From Escherichia phage REP2, in sequence record OQ174501.1: a DNA stretch of 64,000 bases; one strand, given 5' to 3'. Both the position numbers and the translations under genes were made by a program. Below the pieces are notes generated by a model. The model made no database searches. It saw nothing but the letters and a program-made list of their open reading frames with translations, and was not told the origin of the DNA. Within the stretch, counting starts at the first letter, position 1; every line of letters starts with the position of its first letter. Of the stretch, positions 4,209 to 27,932 are shown piece after piece.

Positions 4209-4778
<570 letters not shown>

Positions 4779-4798: not shown

Positions 4799-5215
4799 AT
4801 GACTCGTATTAATTTGACTTTAGTATCTGAACTTGCTGATCAACATTTAATCGCAGAATACCGTGAATTGCCACGCGTTTTTGGTATAATTCGTAAGCAT
4901 GTGGCAAACGGTAAGCGCGTTAAAGATTTTAAAATATCTTCCGAGTTTATTTTAGGTTCTGGTCATGTTACGTTCTTTTACGATAAGTTAGAATTTTTGC
5001 GAAAGCGTCAATTAGACATTATAACGGAATGCTTAAAACGCGGGTTCAGTATAAAAGATACTGAAGTTCCTGACATCAGCGATATTCCAATAGAATGGAA
5101 AAATGATTATAATCCATGCAAATCAGCTATTAAATTGAGTCAACAACGACTTGATGAAAAAATTTTAATGAAACCACACTGGTATAAGTATTACGGTAAA
5201 AATATTTACATTTAA
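4799..5215 (+). CDS. denV: Endonuclease V (pyrimidine dimer DNA glycosylase)
   Basis: 138 aa; [17 protein letters not shown]...YRELPRVFG matches T4 DenV as I recall it. Confidence 0.93.
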
Positions 5216-5224
5216 AGGAAACAT

Positions 5225-5698
5225 ATGAAAACATATCAAGAATTTATCACTGAAGCAGCTATTAATTCTCAAATTATTGCTGAATCTTTTACCGATCTTT
5301 TGAAATTTAAAAAAGGTCAAAAAATCACTGCTGTATTGGATGATGGTACAGAAGTTGAGATGGATGTACAGGGATATAATTATGCAGTAGATGGAAAACT
5401 GTATAATAAATCTCATGCTAAATTTGATTCATTTGACGACTTTGTTAATACAGTTGAAGATGAAAAAACTCGTAGATCCATTGCAACTGGCGACGCTAAG
5501 GTTCTTATGGCACATGGCCATGAACGCATCCGCGCTAAACAGAATAAAATGGGCGAAGATAATTTTGCATTAGTTGGTTATCAATCTGGTAAACAAACTT
5601 ATGGCTATCAACGTACTGCTACCATGTATAATAAAAATGGTAAAATCGCTTTCGTGAATAGTAAAGGTTCTATTCAGTACGTTAAATCGTTCAAATAA
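5225..5698 (+). CDS. Internal protein (Ip) with capsid-targeting N-terminus
   Basis: MKTYQEFITE|A capsid-targeting sequence; 157 aa. Confidence 0.7.
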   Translation: MKTYQEFITEAAINSQIIAESFTDLLKFKKGQKITAVLDDGTEVEMDVQGYNYAVDGKLYNKSHAKFDSFDDFVNTVEDEKTRRSIATGDAKVLMAHGHERIRAKQNKMGEDNFALVGYQSGKQTYGYQRTATMYNKNGKIAFVNSKGSIQYVKSFK

Positions 5699-5837: not shown

Positions 5838-6379
5838 AAATGAGAACATTTTTAACTGGTCCTTATCTATCCCTGATGAATGCTTTTACACACCATTCTG
5901 ACGCTAGAGTAGAAGAAATTTGTAAAAACGAATATATCCCGCCATTTGAAGAATTACTTAAACAGTACTGCACACTTCGACTAGATGGTGGACGTCAATC
6001 TGGTAAATCAACTGCAGTAACTAATTTTGCCGCTAATTGGTTGTATGACGGTGGAACAGTTATTGTTCTTTCTAATACTTCAGCTTACGCTAAAATTTCT
6101 GCAAATAACATTAAAAAGGAATTTTCGCGTTATTCTAATGATGATATACGTTTTCGTTTATTTACTGATTCTGTACGCAGTTTTATTGGTAATAAAGGAA
6201 GTAAGTTCAGAGGTTTATCGCTTTCGCGAATTTTGTATATAATTGACGAGCCTGTCAAATCTCCTGATATGGATAAGATTTATAGTGTCCATATTGACAC
6301 TGTACACTGCTGCTGTAATATTAAATGTTGTATTGGTGGTATTACTCGTCCACAGTTTTTCGTAATCGGAATGCAATGA
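5838..6379 (+). CDS. P-loop (Walker A) protein
   Basis: GGRQSGKST Walker A motif; start placed at the ATG after ggagagaataaa (ORF track starts at 5792); Cys-rich C-terminus. Confidence 0.5.
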
Positions 6380-6705
6380 TGACAGACACACAGCTTTTCG
6401 AATATCTCTATTTTTCGCCAAAAACTATTAAAAATAAATTGGTAAATCATTTTGAAATTTTGGCAAATAACAACATTTTAAGCGAATTTTATCCCAAGCA
6501 ATACAAATTACAAAAAGGCGTATTCAAAGGATGCAGAGTTTTGTGCACGGCTCCTAATGCACGGCTAATGAATAAAATTCCATATTTTACCATGGAATTT
6601 ATTGATGGGCCTTTTAAAGGACTAATCACACAGAGTTTAATGGCATATGATTCTGAGCCATTTTTAATTAAAGAACAATCTTGGATAAATTTATTTTCTA
6701 ATTGA
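6376..6705 (+). CDS. Hypothetical protein
   Basis: ATGA start/stop overlap with the previous gene; 109 aa. Confidence 0.5.
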   Translation: MMTDTQLFEYLYFSPKTIKNKLVNHFEILANNNILSEFYPKQYKLQKGVFKGCRVLCTAPNARLMNKIPYFTMEFIDGPFKGLITQSLMAYDSEPFLIKEQSWINLFSN

Positions 6706-6711
6706 GGTTAT

Positions 6712-7074
6712 ATGAAAGCATATCAAATTCTTGAAGGCACACATAAAGGTACTATTTATTTTGAAGATGGTATTCAAGCACGAATTATTGTCTCTAAAAC
6801 CTTTAAAGAGGACTCTTTTGTAGACCCAGAAATTTTCTATGGTTTGCATGCCCGTGAAATTGAAATTGAGCAACAGCCTACAGTTAAAATTGAAGGTGGT
6901 CAACACCTGAACGTTAACGTTCTGCGTCGTGAAACTCTGGAAGATGCAGTTAAGCATCCGGAAAAATATCCGCAGCTGACCATCCGTGTATCCGGTTATG
7001 CAGTTCGCTTTAACTCTCTGACTCCGGAACAGCAGCGCGACGTTATCGCTCGTACCTTCACCGAGAGTTTGTAA
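6712..7074 (+). CDS. Autonomous glycyl radical cofactor (GrcA/YfiD-like)
   Basis: C-terminal ~60 aa ([59 protein letters not shown]) matches E. coli GrcA with the glycyl-radical RVSGY motif; this half has host-like codon usage (ctg, cgt, ccg). Confidence 0.85.
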
Positions 7075-7295
7075 TGGCAAAGATAATTATTGAAGGTTCT
7101 GAAGATGTGCTAAATGCTTTCGCCGAGTGGTTTAGTAATTCAGGCGAACAGCAATTTAACGAAGCATGGAACATGGGTGATATTAATGGAATTTATCCTA
7201 CGACAGAAATTTCTGTTCAAGGATATGGCATTCATGAACCTATTCGTTTAGTTGAATATGATTTGGGAACAGGTGAGGAAGTAAAATATGATTGA
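7074..7295 (+). CDS. Hypothetical small acidic protein
   Basis: TAATG overlap with the upstream gene; 73 aa. Confidence 0.5.
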   Translation: MAKIIIEGSEDVLNAFAEWFSNSGEQQFNEAWNMGDINGIYPTTEISVQGYGIHEPIRLVEYDLGTGEEVKYD

Positions 7296-7891: not shown

Positions 7892-8353
7892 ATGACTATC
7901 AATACAGAAGTTTTTATCCGTCGAAATAAGCTTCGTCGTCACTTTGAGTCGGAGTTTCGTCAAATTAACAATGAGATTCGTGAGGCATCAAAAGCAGCAG
8001 GAGTCTCATCGTTTCATCTAAAATATTCTCAACATCTTCTTGATCGTGCAATTCAACGGGAGATTGATGAGACATATGTTTTTGAATTATTCCATAAAAT
8101 AAAAGACCATGTTTTAGAAGTTAATGAATTCCTGAGTATGCCTCCGCGTCCTGACATTGACGAGGATTTTATTGATGGGGTTGAATATCGTCCTGGACGT
8201 TTAGAAATCACAGATGGAAATCTTTGGCTTGGATTTACAGTTTGTAAACCTAACGCGAAGTTCAAAGACCCGTCACTTCAATGTAGGATGGCAATTATCA
8301 ACAGTCGTCGTTTACCAGGAAAGGCTTCTAAAGCAGTAATTAAAACTCAATGA
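7892..8353 (+). CDS. regB: RegB site-specific endoribonuclease
   Basis: 153 aa; MTINTEVFIRRNKLRRHFESEFRQINNEIREASK matches T4 RegB as I recall it. Confidence 0.93.
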   Translation: MTINTEVFIRRNKLRRHFESEFRQINNEIREASKAAGVSSFHLKYSQHLLDRAIQREIDETYVFELFHKIKDHVLEVNEFLSMPPRPDIDEDFIDGVEYRPGRLEITDGNLWLGFTVCKPNAKFKDPSLQCRMAIINSRRLPGKASKAVIKTQ

Positions 8354-24238: not shown

Positions 24239-24712
24239 ATGTTATTGACTGGCAAATTATACAAAGAAGAAAAACAAAAATTTTATAATGCACAAAACGG
24301 TAAATGCTTAATTTGCCAACGAGAACTAAATCCTGATGTTCAAGCTAATCATCTTGATCATGACCATGAATTAAATGGACCAAAAGCAGGAAAGGTACGT
24401 GGATTGCTTTGTAATCTCTGCAATGCCACAGAAGGTCAAATGAAACATAAATTTAATCGTTCTGGCTTAAAGGGGCAAGGTGTTGATTATCTTGAATGGT
24501 TAGAAAATTTACTTACTTATTTAAAATCCGATTACACCCAAAATAATATTCACCCTAACTTTGTTGGAGATAAATCAAAGGAATTTTCTCGTTTAGGAAA
24601 AGAGGAAATGATGGCTGAGATGCTTCAAAGAGGATTTGAATATAATGAATCTGACACTAAAACACAATTAATAGCTTCATTTAAGAAGCAGCTTAGAAAG
24701 AGTTTAAAATGA
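24239..24712 (+). CDS. 49: Endonuclease VII (Holliday junction resolvase)
   Basis: 157 aa; zinc motif CLICQ...CNLCN and HxH; matches T4 gp49 as I recall it. Confidence 0.9.
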   Translation: MLLTGKLYKEEKQKFYNAQNGKCLICQRELNPDVQANHLDHDHELNGPKAGKVRGLLCNLCNATEGQMKHKFNRSGLKGQGVDYLEWLENLLTYLKSDYTQNNIHPNFVGDKSKEFSRLGKEEMMAEMLQRGFEYNESDTKTQLIASFKKQLRKSLK

Positions 24713-26526
24713 CAATTGAAAAAGAAATTGAAGGATTGATTCATAAAACTAATAAAGACCTTTTAAACGAGAATGCTAATAAAGATTCTCGTGTTTTTCC
24801 AACTCAACGGGACCTTATGGCTGGTATTGTGTCTAAACACATTGCCAAAAATATGGTCCCGTCTTTTATTATGAAAGCGCATGAAAGCGGAATTATTCAT
24901 TTCCATGATATTGATTATTCCCCTGCTCTTCCATTTACTAATTGCTGTTTAGTAGATTTAAAAGGAATGCTTGAGAACGGATTTAAGCTTGGTAATGCAC
25001 AGATTGAAACTCCTAAATCAATTGGCGTTGCTACTGCAATTATGGCACAAATTACTGCGCAAGTTGCTTCCCATCAATATGGCGGAACGACTTTTGCTAA
25101 TGTAGATAAAGTACTTTCTCCTTATGTTAAACGCACCTATGCAAAACATATTGAGGATGCAGAAAAATGGCAAATCGCTGATGCGTTAAATTATGCTCAA
25201 TCTAAAACAGAAAAAGATGTATACGATGCATTCCAAGCTTATGAATATGAAGTAAATACTCTCTTTAGTTCAAACGGACAAACACCTTTTGTAACAATTA
25301 CATTTGGTACAGGAACTGACTGGACTGAACGAATGATTCAGAAAGCAATTCTGAAAAATCGTATTAAAGGTCTCGGTCGTGATGGGATAACTCCTATTTT
25401 CCCTAAGCTTGTTATGTTCGTTGAAGAAGGTGTTAATCTTTATAAAGACGATCCGAACTATGATATTAAACTGCTTGCTCTAGAGTGCGCAAGCAAAAGA
25501 ATGTATCCTGATATTATTTCAGCTAAGAACAATAAAGCTATCACTGGCTCATCTATTCCTGTTTCTCCAATGGGTTGTCGTAGTTTCTTGAGCGTATGGA
25601 AAGATTCGACTGGCAATGAAATTCTTGATGGACGTAATAATCTCGGTGTTGTAACACTGAATCTTCCTCGTATCGCATTAGATTCTTATATTGGAACACA
25701 GTTCAATGAACAGAAATTTATCGAATTGTTCAATGAACGAATGGATTTATGTTTTGAAGCTTTGATGTGTAGAATTAGTTCCTTAAAAGGAGTTAAAGCG
25801 ACTGTTGCTCCTATTCTTTACCAAGAAGGTGCATTCGGGGTTCGTCTTAAACCTGATGACGACATAATTGAGTTATTTAAAAACGGTAGAAGTTCAGTGT
25901 CTTTAGGATACATTGGTATTCATGAATTGAATATTCTTGTCGGTCGTGATATTGGACAAGAAATTTTAACTAAAATGAATGCTCGTCTTAAACAGTGGAC
26001 TGAAAGAACTGGGTTTGCTTTTAGTTTATATTCGACTCCTGCTGAAAACCTTTGTTATCGCTTCTGTAAACTCGATACAGAAAAATATGGAAGCGTAAAA
26101 GATGTTACTGATAAAGGCTGGTACACTAACAGTTTCCACGTTTCAGTAGAAGAAAATGTTACTCCGTTTGAAAAGATTTCTCGTGAAGCGCCATATCATT
26201 TCATTGCGACAGGTGGTCACATTTCTTATGTTGAACTTCCTGATATGAAAAATAACTTAAAAGGTCTTGAGGCTGTATGGGATTATGCCGCACAACATTT
26301 AGATTATTTTGGTGTTAATATGCCAGTAGATAAATGTTTTACATGTGGAAGTACCCATGAAATGACTCCTACTGAAAACGGATTTGTTTGTTCTATTTGT
26401 GGAGAAACTGATCCTAAAAAGATGAATACAATAAGAAGAACATGTGGTTATTTGGGAAATCCGAACGAGCGCGGATTTAATCTCGGTAAAAATAAAGAAA
26501 TCATGCATAGGGTTAAACACCAATGA
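24709..26526 (+). CDS. nrdD: Anaerobic ribonucleoside-triphosphate reductase
   Basis: 605 aa; C-terminal glycyl radical motif RRTCGYLG and Cys zinc motif; uninterrupted ORF with no intron. Confidence 0.93.
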   Translation: MTIEKEIEGLIHKTNKDLLNENANKDSRVFPTQRDLMAGIVSKHIAKNMVPSFIMKAHESGIIHFHDIDYSPALPFTNCCLVDLKGMLENGFKLGNAQIETPKSIGVATAIMAQITAQVASHQYGGTTFANVDKVLSPYVKRTYAKHIEDAEKWQIADALNYAQSKTEKDVYDAFQAYEYEVNTLFSSNGQTPFVTITFGTGTDWTERMIQKAILKNRIKGLGRDGITPIFPKLVMFVEEGVNLYKDDPNYDIKLLALECASKRMYPDIISAKNNKAITGSSIPVSPMGCRSFLSVWKDSTGNEILDGRNNLGVVTLNLPRIALDSYIGTQFNEQKFIELFNERMDLCFEALMCRISSLKGVKATVAPILYQEGAFGVRLKPDDDIIELFKNGRSSVSLGYIGIHELNILVGRDIGQEILTKMNARLKQWTERTGFAFSLYSTPAENLCYRFCKLDTEKYGSVKDVTDKGWYTNSFHVSVEENVTPFEKISREAPYHFIATGGHISYVELPDMKNNLKGLEAVWDYAAQHLDYFGVNMPVDKCFTCGSTHEMTPTENGFVCSICGETDPKKMNTIRRTCGYLGNPNERGFNLGKNKEIMHRVKHQ

Positions 26527-26993
26527 ATTACGATAGATTTTATCCCTGTGATTTTGTGAATGGCCCTGGATGCAGGGTCGTTCTTTTCGTTACAGGTTGT
26601 TTGCATAAATGTGAAGGGTGTTATAATAAATCAACATGGAATGCTAGAAATGGTGTTCCATTCACTGGTGAAACACTAGAACAATTAATTGAATGTTTGA
26701 ATAATGATTATATAGAAGGATTGACTATAACCGGAGGTGACCCTCTCTATCCTGATAACAGAGACGTGATTCACTCTGTGGTTCAAACTATTAAAAATCT
26801 TTATCCCAATAAAAGCATTTGGTTGTGGACAGGATATAAGTTTGAAGATATTAAACAACTAGAAATGCTTAAATATGTTGATGTTATTATTGATGGGAAG
26901 TATGAGAAAAATCTTCCGACCAAAAAGCTGTGGCGAGGATCAGATAATCAGCGACTTTGGTCAAATACCGATGGGGTGTGGAAACATGATTAA
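26523..26993 (+). CDS. nrdG: Anaerobic RNR activating enzyme (radical SAM)
   Basis: CLHKCEGC radical-SAM cluster motif; 156 aa. Confidence 0.9.
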   Translation: MNYDRFYPCDFVNGPGCRVVLFVTGCLHKCEGCYNKSTWNARNGVPFTGETLEQLIECLNNDYIEGLTITGGDPLYPDNRDVIHSVVQTIKNLYPNKSIWLWTGYKFEDIKQLEMLKYVDVIIDGKYEKNLPTKKLWRGSDNQRLWSNTDGVWKHD

Positions 26994-27325: not shown

Positions 27326-27637
27326 ATGATTAGTTTTGAGCGGTATGTAGTAGAGAGTTGGAATGGTTTTGATATGTTCGGTAATGACTATTATTTCTAT
27401 GAATGTAGTCTGAACCCAAGCTTCTGGGCTGGACGTGAACAAGACCTCGAAGAAATCAACGCTCGTGCTGATTTGTTAGGTGAACTGCCTACTACTTATT
27501 TCACCTTTGATGAATCCGGCTTCGTTATCCAGGTTTATTTTCCTGAAGAAAACTCTGGTGAGGATTCTGTTAACCCGCCATACTGGGCTTATCAAGGAAT
27601 TATTTCTCGTGGAACAAAACTCGAACTTAAAGAATAA
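27326..27637 (+). CDS. Hypothetical protein
   Basis: 103 aa. Confidence 0.5.
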   Translation: MISFERYVVESWNGFDMFGNDYYFYECSLNPSFWAGREQDLEEINARADLLGELPTTYFTFDESGFVIQVYFPEENSGEDSVNPPYWAYQGIISRGTKLELKE

Positions 27638-27638
27638 G

Positions 27639-27932
27639 ATTGAAGTCTATGGAATTCCAGATGAAGTAGGTCGTTGTCCTGGATGTCAATCAGTTACAAA
27701 ACTTCTAAAGGAGCTCAATGCTCCTTTTACTTTCTATAAAGTTCTTACAAATAACGGTAAGATTGAGTATGATCGTCCGCTGATTGTATCTCTTGCTAAA
27801 CGCGCTGGATTCACATCTCTTAACATTCGTTATCCAGTCATTTTCATTAATGATTCTAGACAAAAGAACATTAAACACTTCAAAGAAACTCTCATTTCAC
27901 TTGGATATGATAGAGATATCATAGAAGACTAA
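27639..27932 (+). CDS. Glutaredoxin-like protein (nrdH position), start codon uncertain
   Basis: CPGC redox motif in KIEVYGIPDEVGRCPGCQ; no in-frame ATG in the non-overlapping part, so a non-ATG start is implied. Confidence 0.5.
   Translation: MEVYGIPDEVGRCPGCQSVTKLLKELNAPFTFYKVLTNNGKIEYDRPLIVSLAKRAGFTSLNIRYPVIFINDSRQKNIKHFKETLISLGYDRDIIED

Follow-up and report, generated by a model that had tools for sequence, protein, structure and literature searches.

The window analyzed here is the whole 64,000-nt stretch of Escherichia phage REP2 (OQ174501.1), a T4-type genome presented in the reverse of the standard T4 direction. We detected the gene order e, denV, vs.8, vs.7, vs.6, vs.5, vs.4, vs.3, regB, and vs.1, which agrees with the T4 map, apart from a DUF7412 gene (5225-5698, E 6e-96) that separates denV from the vs.8-like gene and has no annotated counterpart at this place in T4. 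The lysozyme gene e is located at 4245-4739, denV at 4799-5215, and regB at 7892-8353. In the window e is followed directly by denV, and ipIII and ipII, located between them in T4, are absent. The tRNA and Rfam scans of the 64-kb window gave no matches.

The 120-aa ORF at 6712-7074 (+ strand, with ATG start and TAA stop in the ORF list) was assigned, using the ORF list, synteny, Pfam, and PDB comparisons, to vs.6 (Y06I), encoding a GrcA-like autonomous glycyl-radical cofactor. Four nucleotides 5' of its ATG we read a putative Shine-Dalgarno-like motif, GAGG (6704-6707, + strand), which overlaps the TGA stop of vs.7 (6703-6705), and the TAA stop of vs.6 (7072-7074) overlaps the ATG of vs.5 (7074-7076), forming TAATG. 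The promoter and terminator scan around vs.6 returned background-level signals only. A 129-aa antisense ORF (window 6691-7080, - strand) spans all of vs.6 and is most likely a mechanical by-product of the sense frame.

The gene is not a new one, since the syntenic T4 gene vs.6 is already annotated as 'autonomous glycyl radical cofactor GrcA'. T4 Vs.6/Y06I (NP_049730) occupies the same slot between vs.7 and vs.5, has the same length of 120 aa, and is identical at 118 of the 120 residues, the sole protein differences being Q54 and R73 in the window versus P54 and H73 in T4. At the nucleotide level, vs.6 is 98.9-99.4% identical to T4 and 100% identical to phages Pinarejo and Lutter, where it is also annotated as GrcA. 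The E. coli-type 3' tract described below and its 5' junction are common to the T4 and window genes, but the tract ends three codons earlier in the window (TTC ACC GAG) than in T4 (TTT ACT GAA).

The vs.6 product shows the hallmark of GrcA, being a small (~14 kDa) stand-alone protein that is essentially a PFL-type glycyl-radical domain. The Pfam Gly_radical match covers aa 60-101 (E 2.5e-18), and the best solved structure is E. coli GrcA (6OWR, NMR; E 9e-42, vs.6 aa 22-120), followed by PflB 697-759 (E 5e-26). The protein aligns to GrcA 28-127, and its last 60 residues (E61-L120) are 100% identical to E. coli GrcA 68-127, including the RVSGY motif, R92-V93-S94-G95-Y96, encoded at 6985-6999. 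The GGT codon at 6994-6996 (+ strand) specifies Gly95, the predicted glycyl-radical site, assigned by homology as the equivalent of GrcA G102 and PflB G734. The GrcA homology reaches beyond the radical domain to the N-terminal region: the N-terminal halves alone (phage aa 22-59 versus GrcA 28-66) gave 14/39 identical residues (36%, E 1e-5, BLASTP).

E. coli GrcA (YfiD) thus shares with vs.6 the stand-alone PFL-type radical domain and a recognisably homologous N-terminal region, although the N-terminal half of vs.6 is shorter by 7 residues and has an identity of only ~36%. The two genes differ in context, vs.6 being part of a lytic-phage operon of small early-region genes and grcA being located at the ung-grcA-eamB locus. 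The C-terminal radical domain of PflB (~697-759) has the same fold element and RVSGY motif and is the piece replaced by the spare part, whereas the ~700-residue catalytic barrel of PflB is absent from the vs.6 product. TIGR04365 (NCBIfam, IPR011140) is the top-scoring family for vs.6 by a wide margin, with 154.9 bits (E 1.2e-45, profile positions 25-126 of 126), below the GrcA equivalog cutoff of 170 bits because the N-terminal half is diverged. The product would accordingly be classed by this threshold as a functional GrcA homologue (demonstrated for T4), not as a strict equivalog.

Nucleotide alignment to E. coli grcA divides vs.6 into three parts. The 5' part (6712-6889, + strand, codons 1-59 and the first base of codon 60) is AT-rich and of old phage lineage, encoding a diverged homologue of the GrcA N-terminus; it gave no blastn match in 5426 complete E. 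coli genomes, and the codons that can be aligned 5' of 6890 show only 48% nucleotide identity to grcA. The host-derived conversion tract (6890-7058, + strand) comprises 169 nt with 100% identity to grcA, in the allele of E. coli strain SK1144. The 3' boundary zone (7059-7074, + strand) contains five synonymous differences from E. coli, at 7059, 7062, 7065, 7068, and 7069, all in the last 16 nt, with the last five codons reading TTC ACC GAG AGT TTG in the window versus TTT ACT GAA AGC CTG in E. coli; phage and E. coli states are mixed in this zone in an isolate-dependent manner. The block 6890-7074 is identical to grcA at 180/185 positions by base-by-base count, and blastn aligned it to grcA in 5426/5426 complete E. 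coli genomes at about 97.3%.

Both boundaries are sharp, the 5' one at 6890 and the 3' one inside the last 16 nt. No homology was found past the TAA, where phage vs.5 and the E. coli 3' region do not align. Megablast of the 64-kb window against the 5426 E. coli genomes returned the vs.6 block as the sole match, with no other host-like tract. Because the 5' half is itself a diverged homologue of the GrcA N-terminus, the patch lies inside a pre-existing phage grcA homologue. Judged from these alignments, vs.6 is a mosaic of old and young alleles of one family, formed by a gene-conversion patch and not by the joining of unrelated sequences.

From the 5' half to the block, GC3 rises from 20% to 46%. 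The phage reference is 23.4 +/- 6.1 (mean over 61-codon windows), only 0.09% of the phage 61-codon windows reach the block value, and no other 185-nt stretch of the 64 kb is as rich in GC as the block (top 0.03%). Leucine in the block is encoded by CTG in 5/6 cases (phage usage 8%) and proline by CCG in 3/3 (phage usage 16%), with a synonymous-codon score of z = -3.5. The E. coli grcA gene has uniform GC3 in its two halves (42% and 43%). The block composition is foreign in the phage and not in the host, far beyond chance. The sole other 61-codon window with equally high GC3 (47.5%) in the long + strand ORFs lies at 27480-27662 and has no megablast match to E. coli.

These results bear on a sequence-only reading of the locus, which had noted a GrcA/YfiD match over the C-terminal ~60 codons, including RVSGY, and had described host-like codons and GC-richness in the 3' half; both observations are confirmed by the residue-by-residue identity and the composition given above. 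The high nucleotide identity that it expected between 6890-7074 and grcA was likewise found, with a perfect run of 169 nt. Its description of the N-terminal half as AT-rich and phage-like holds for composition, but the half is a diverged GrcA homologue and not unrelated DNA. Of the proposed recent recombination with host grcA, the host origin stands, while 'recent' applies on the scale of Escherichia evolution and not to an event in this isolate.

For the donor comparison we used 6890-7056, the first 167 nt of the 169-nt identical run. The window has 0/167 differences from the SK1144 allele, which itself differs from K-12 at 1/167, while the differences of E. coli number 2/167 from the cryptic Escherichia clade, 14/167 from Citrobacter, 24/167 from Klebsiella and Enterobacter, and 29/167 from Salmonella. 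The identity of the tract to E. coli exceeds that of E. coli to its nearest sampled relatives. Since the other genera differ at 14/167 sites or more, the donor is Escherichia, with the phage tract nesting inside E. coli. The pflB gene was ruled out as donor, with 78% identity to the block versus 97% for grcA. A few synonymous tract sites (grcA nt 222, 240, and 246) vary within the E. coli population, and about half of the genomes, in a spread sample of the ranking, have one more mismatch to the phage than SK1144, which in K-12 is nt 240, T to C.

We surveyed 50,697 phage records, with thresholds of at least 88% identity for the 5' half and at least 90% for the block. The Tequatrovirus/Mosigvirus-type 5' half was detected in ~648 records and the block in 647 of all records, mostly at 95% identity or above. 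The patch is fixed in Tequatrovirus and Mosigvirus and not special to the REP2 phage: T4, T2, and RB69 carry it, and the E. coli allele is also present in Tequatrovirus/Mosigvirus isolates from Yersinia, Salmonella, Serratia, and Shigella. Other virulent phages (Krischvirus RB49, Slopekvirus, Jiaodavirus, Karamvirus, T5-like Tequintavirus, Schizotequatrovirus, and jumbo phages) encode the same small protein with a conserved block peptide, but against the sampled host grcA genes their blocks have identities of 70-87%, with uninterrupted matches no longer than ~35 nt and no sign of a recent host patch, one uncultured contig (L112, see below) being a possible exception. In comparisons with a panel of 81 host grcA genes, the best block match of Jiaodavirus was 87%; Slopekvirus reached 84-85%, Krischvirus 80%, Karamvirus 79%, the T5-like phages 75%, and a Vibrio phage 74%. 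A patch from the own host was looked for in Klebsiella, Enterobacter, Salmonella, and Vibrio phages, and no close match was found among the 81 host grcA genes (best 74-87%). A dereplicated IMG/VR panel gave the same picture, the other genera being without the E. coli-type block, and a metagenome scan with the junction sequence yielded 5 further contigs only, all with the same pattern.

Several of these homologues have features of their own. The Jiaodavirus vs.6 (Klebsiella phage KP185, L084, 401-763) has GC3 of 57% in the 3' block versus 19% in the 5' half, and this GC3-rich block, at most 87% identical to sampled host grcA, may reflect an older conversion or an unsampled donor. T5-like phages (e.g., Tequintavirus NBSal003, L090, 320-688) encode a 122-aa GrcA-like gene adjoining tRNA genes, with a block 71-75% identical to host grcA; the many T5-like records from Salmonella and E. 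coli usually label it, wrongly, 'pyruvate formate-lyase' or 'acetyltransferase'. Two IMG/VR contigs of jumbo-phage size (L116 and L119, 354-357 kb) encode GrcA-like proteins with very AT-rich blocks (GC3 11-16%), so that the distribution of the spare-part gene extends far outside the T4-like phages. Among the IMG/VR contigs L161-L171, several gave matches only because they contain a full-length pflB-type gene, whose C-terminus was hit (GC3 54-61%); these appear to be bacterial DNA, from prophage flanks or misclassified contigs, and not phage GrcA.

Host reads merged into the phage contig by assembly or contamination would also give a host-identical block, and nothing beyond the identity itself favours such an artefact; its probability is negligible, considering that an identical mosaic, in frame and joined at the same point, recurs in the T4 reference genome, in T2 and RB69, in hundreds of phages sequenced independently, and in metagenome contigs of ~130-168 kb. 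Another account dispenses with transfer and proposes an old phage 3' half kept host-identical by purifying selection, the radical domain having to fit host PflA and PflB, in line with a C-terminal peptide that is extremely conserved across phage and bacterial homologues. Synonymous sites, however, are not fixed by protein-level selection. In coliphages without the tract, the block is 74-76% identical to E. coli grcA in Krischvirus (RB49, G2248, and Brandy) and 71-74% in T5-like phages, with nearly the same C-terminal peptide; because these phages keep the peptide at 71-76% nucleotide identity, protein-level selection cannot explain the identity of the tract. The tract codons are moreover rare in the phage (CTG 5/6, CCG 3/3, GC3 46% versus 23%), and its 169-nt perfect match to E. 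coli exceeds the similarity between E. coli and any other genus, making maintenance by selection highly improbable. The direction is not given by near-identity alone, and the E. coli grcA 3' half could have been taken from a T-even phage, but this reverse transfer can hardly be credited: the two grcA halves match other Enterobacteriaceae alike (5' 83-88%, 3' 87-93%), as in vertical descent, the uniform GC3 of E. coli grcA leaves the block compositionally foreign in the phage only, and grcA is present in 5426/5426 E. coli genomes and in related genera at the conserved locus between ung and eamB. The transfer went from host to phage. We estimate at about 90% the probability that the ORF at 6712-7074 is the T-even phage gene vs.6 (Y06I), encoding a stand-alone glycyl-radical domain protein of the GrcA/YfiD kind, with its 3' part converted from E. 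coli grcA.

The age of the conversion was addressed by comparison with the Mosigvirus RB69 (L083; window 6325-7295). The 5' half of the window gene differs from RB69 at 18/178 sites (90% identity) and the tract at 2/167 (98.8%; Fisher p = 3e-4), with 13/59 and 1/56 differences, respectively, at third codon positions, and identity drops to 71-72% in the flanking vs.7 and vs.5. Between Tequatrovirus and Mosigvirus the whole of vs.6, the old 5' half included, is much better conserved or more recently exchanged than its neighbours. The tract appears younger than the Tequatrovirus/Mosigvirus split of vs.6; a tract that post-dates this split would have been installed more than once, or exchanged between phages afterwards, and the alignments support either repeated origin or passage between Tequatrovirus and Mosigvirus. 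A single conversion in the common ancestor of the two genera, with vertical inheritance since and neither recurrence nor later exchange, agrees with the identical 5' junction in 24/24 sequences examined and with the fixation of the patch in ~647 of ~648 records, although the single junction may simply lie where phage-host similarity ends. We consider this history unlikely, given that divergence between the genera is about ten times lower in the tract than in the 5' half, that the flanks are far more diverged than the tract, and that the genera share no derived substitutions and have different 3' ends. In the 24 Tequatrovirus/Mosigvirus sequences the tract differs from E. coli at 0-4 sites, and the variants radiate from the E. 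coli sequence, since the substitutions are mostly private and none is common to both genera. The last Mosigvirus codons, GAG AGT CTA, have the Slopekvirus state, and in the Tequatroviruses the last five codons combine phage and E. coli states in at least 7 ways; no more than six third-position or synonymous sites are involved in these combinations, and point mutation could be a contributor. The E. coli polymorphism at grcA nt 240 (T in SK1144, C in K-12) recurs among phages of both genera, with C, for instance, in RB69 and L094, which also argues against a single event.

The variants radiating from E. coli, the isolate-specific tract ends, the T/C state of nt 240 in two genera, and a segment in contig L112 hint at recurrence. 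It is possible, though we hold this tentatively and at somewhat less than even odds, that host-to-phage conversion at vs.6 is recurrent and ongoing, the radical-domain half being overwritten repeatedly by the grcA allele of the current host. L112 (IMG/VR UViG_3300008607_000007) belongs to a family of uncultured T4-like contigs with a GrcA-like gene (L110-L115 and L122). In the last ~90 nt of its gene, a 72-nt segment is identical to Haemophilus parainfluenzae grcA (L063) at 70/72 positions, versus 62/72 in the sibling contig L110, and L112 has the host state at 9/10 sites that differ between the two contigs (binomial p = 0.011). L112, a single contig, may represent a second, independent host-to-phage patch in the same part of the gene, and its segment hints that the conversion process is general.

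NrdD, likewise a glycyl-radical enzyme cleaved by oxygen, is encoded in the window (24709-26526) together with its activase NrdG (26523-26993). The vs.6 product might accordingly be a spare radical domain for the phage NrdD and not for host PFL, and the sequence-only reading had named both enzymes; a role in nucleotide metabolism was speculated by Nolan et al. 2006, with only the Pfam match reported (PMC1524935). The sequence gives the NrdD role no support: BLASTP of the product against the window NrdD (605 aa; NF006732, 906 bits) gave E 2.5 without a C-terminal alignment, whereas the domain is PFL-type, with 63 residues aligned on the PflB C-terminus (E 5e-26), and the 3' block was copied from the PFL-specific spare part of the host. 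The published biochemistry, as summarised in PMC8683613, is PFL rescue, and we consider service to NrdD very unlikely. According to the same source, which cites Wagner et al. 2001, YfiD and T4 Y06I receive the radical from PFL-AE, bind O2-cleaved PFL, and restore its activity. The spare glycyl-radical domain for oxygen-damaged PFL, the other half of the proposal, is thus a published function of T4 Y06I, and we infer by analogy that PFL rescue extends to the REP2 vs.6 product, which differs from it at 2/120 residues.

The sequence comparisons show how vs.6 arose. In an old AT-rich phage grcA homologue, the last ~56-60 codons were overwritten through homologous recombination (gene conversion) with the chromosomal grcA of E. 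coli. The 5' crossover is at the universally conserved TTGAAGGTGG (6890) and the 3' crossover inside the last five codons, so that the TAATG overlap of the stop with the vs.5 start was kept. Judged from Slopekvirus and Jiaodavirus, the block protein before conversion would have been only ~2-3 residues off E. coli GrcA. The patch may be selected or neutral, and the candidate advantages are an exact fit to host PflA and PflB or host-preferred codons. In the infected cell, the radical would be put on Gly95 by the host PFL activase PflA, as published for T4 Y06I and expected for the two-residue variant. The window encodes NrdG and no PFL activase, and because of this we infer host PflA as the activator from the published work. 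The radical-bearing vs.6 product would then dock on host PFL that has been shorn of its C-terminal radical domain by oxygen at G734, restoring activity. The predicted outcome is that anaerobic or microaerobic carbon and energy flow is sustained in the infected cell.

The gene and its biochemical function have been known since 2001. In the searchable literature we found no description of the conversion tract, although an earlier mention in Wagner 2001 or in the 2003 T4 genome review is possible. The tract of 169-185 nt is the single place in 64 kb with near-identity to the host chromosome, and it shows that a lytic, host-DNA-destroying phage can still gain a short host segment by homologous recombination, given that a diverged homologue is already aboard. 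If the conversion is recurrent, vs.6 would be a natural, countable reporter of the phage-host recombination rate and of tract length. It would also mark the host species in which a T-even lineage has recently replicated, and in the isolates obtained on Yersinia, Salmonella, Serratia, and Shigella the allele is, without exception, that of E. coli.
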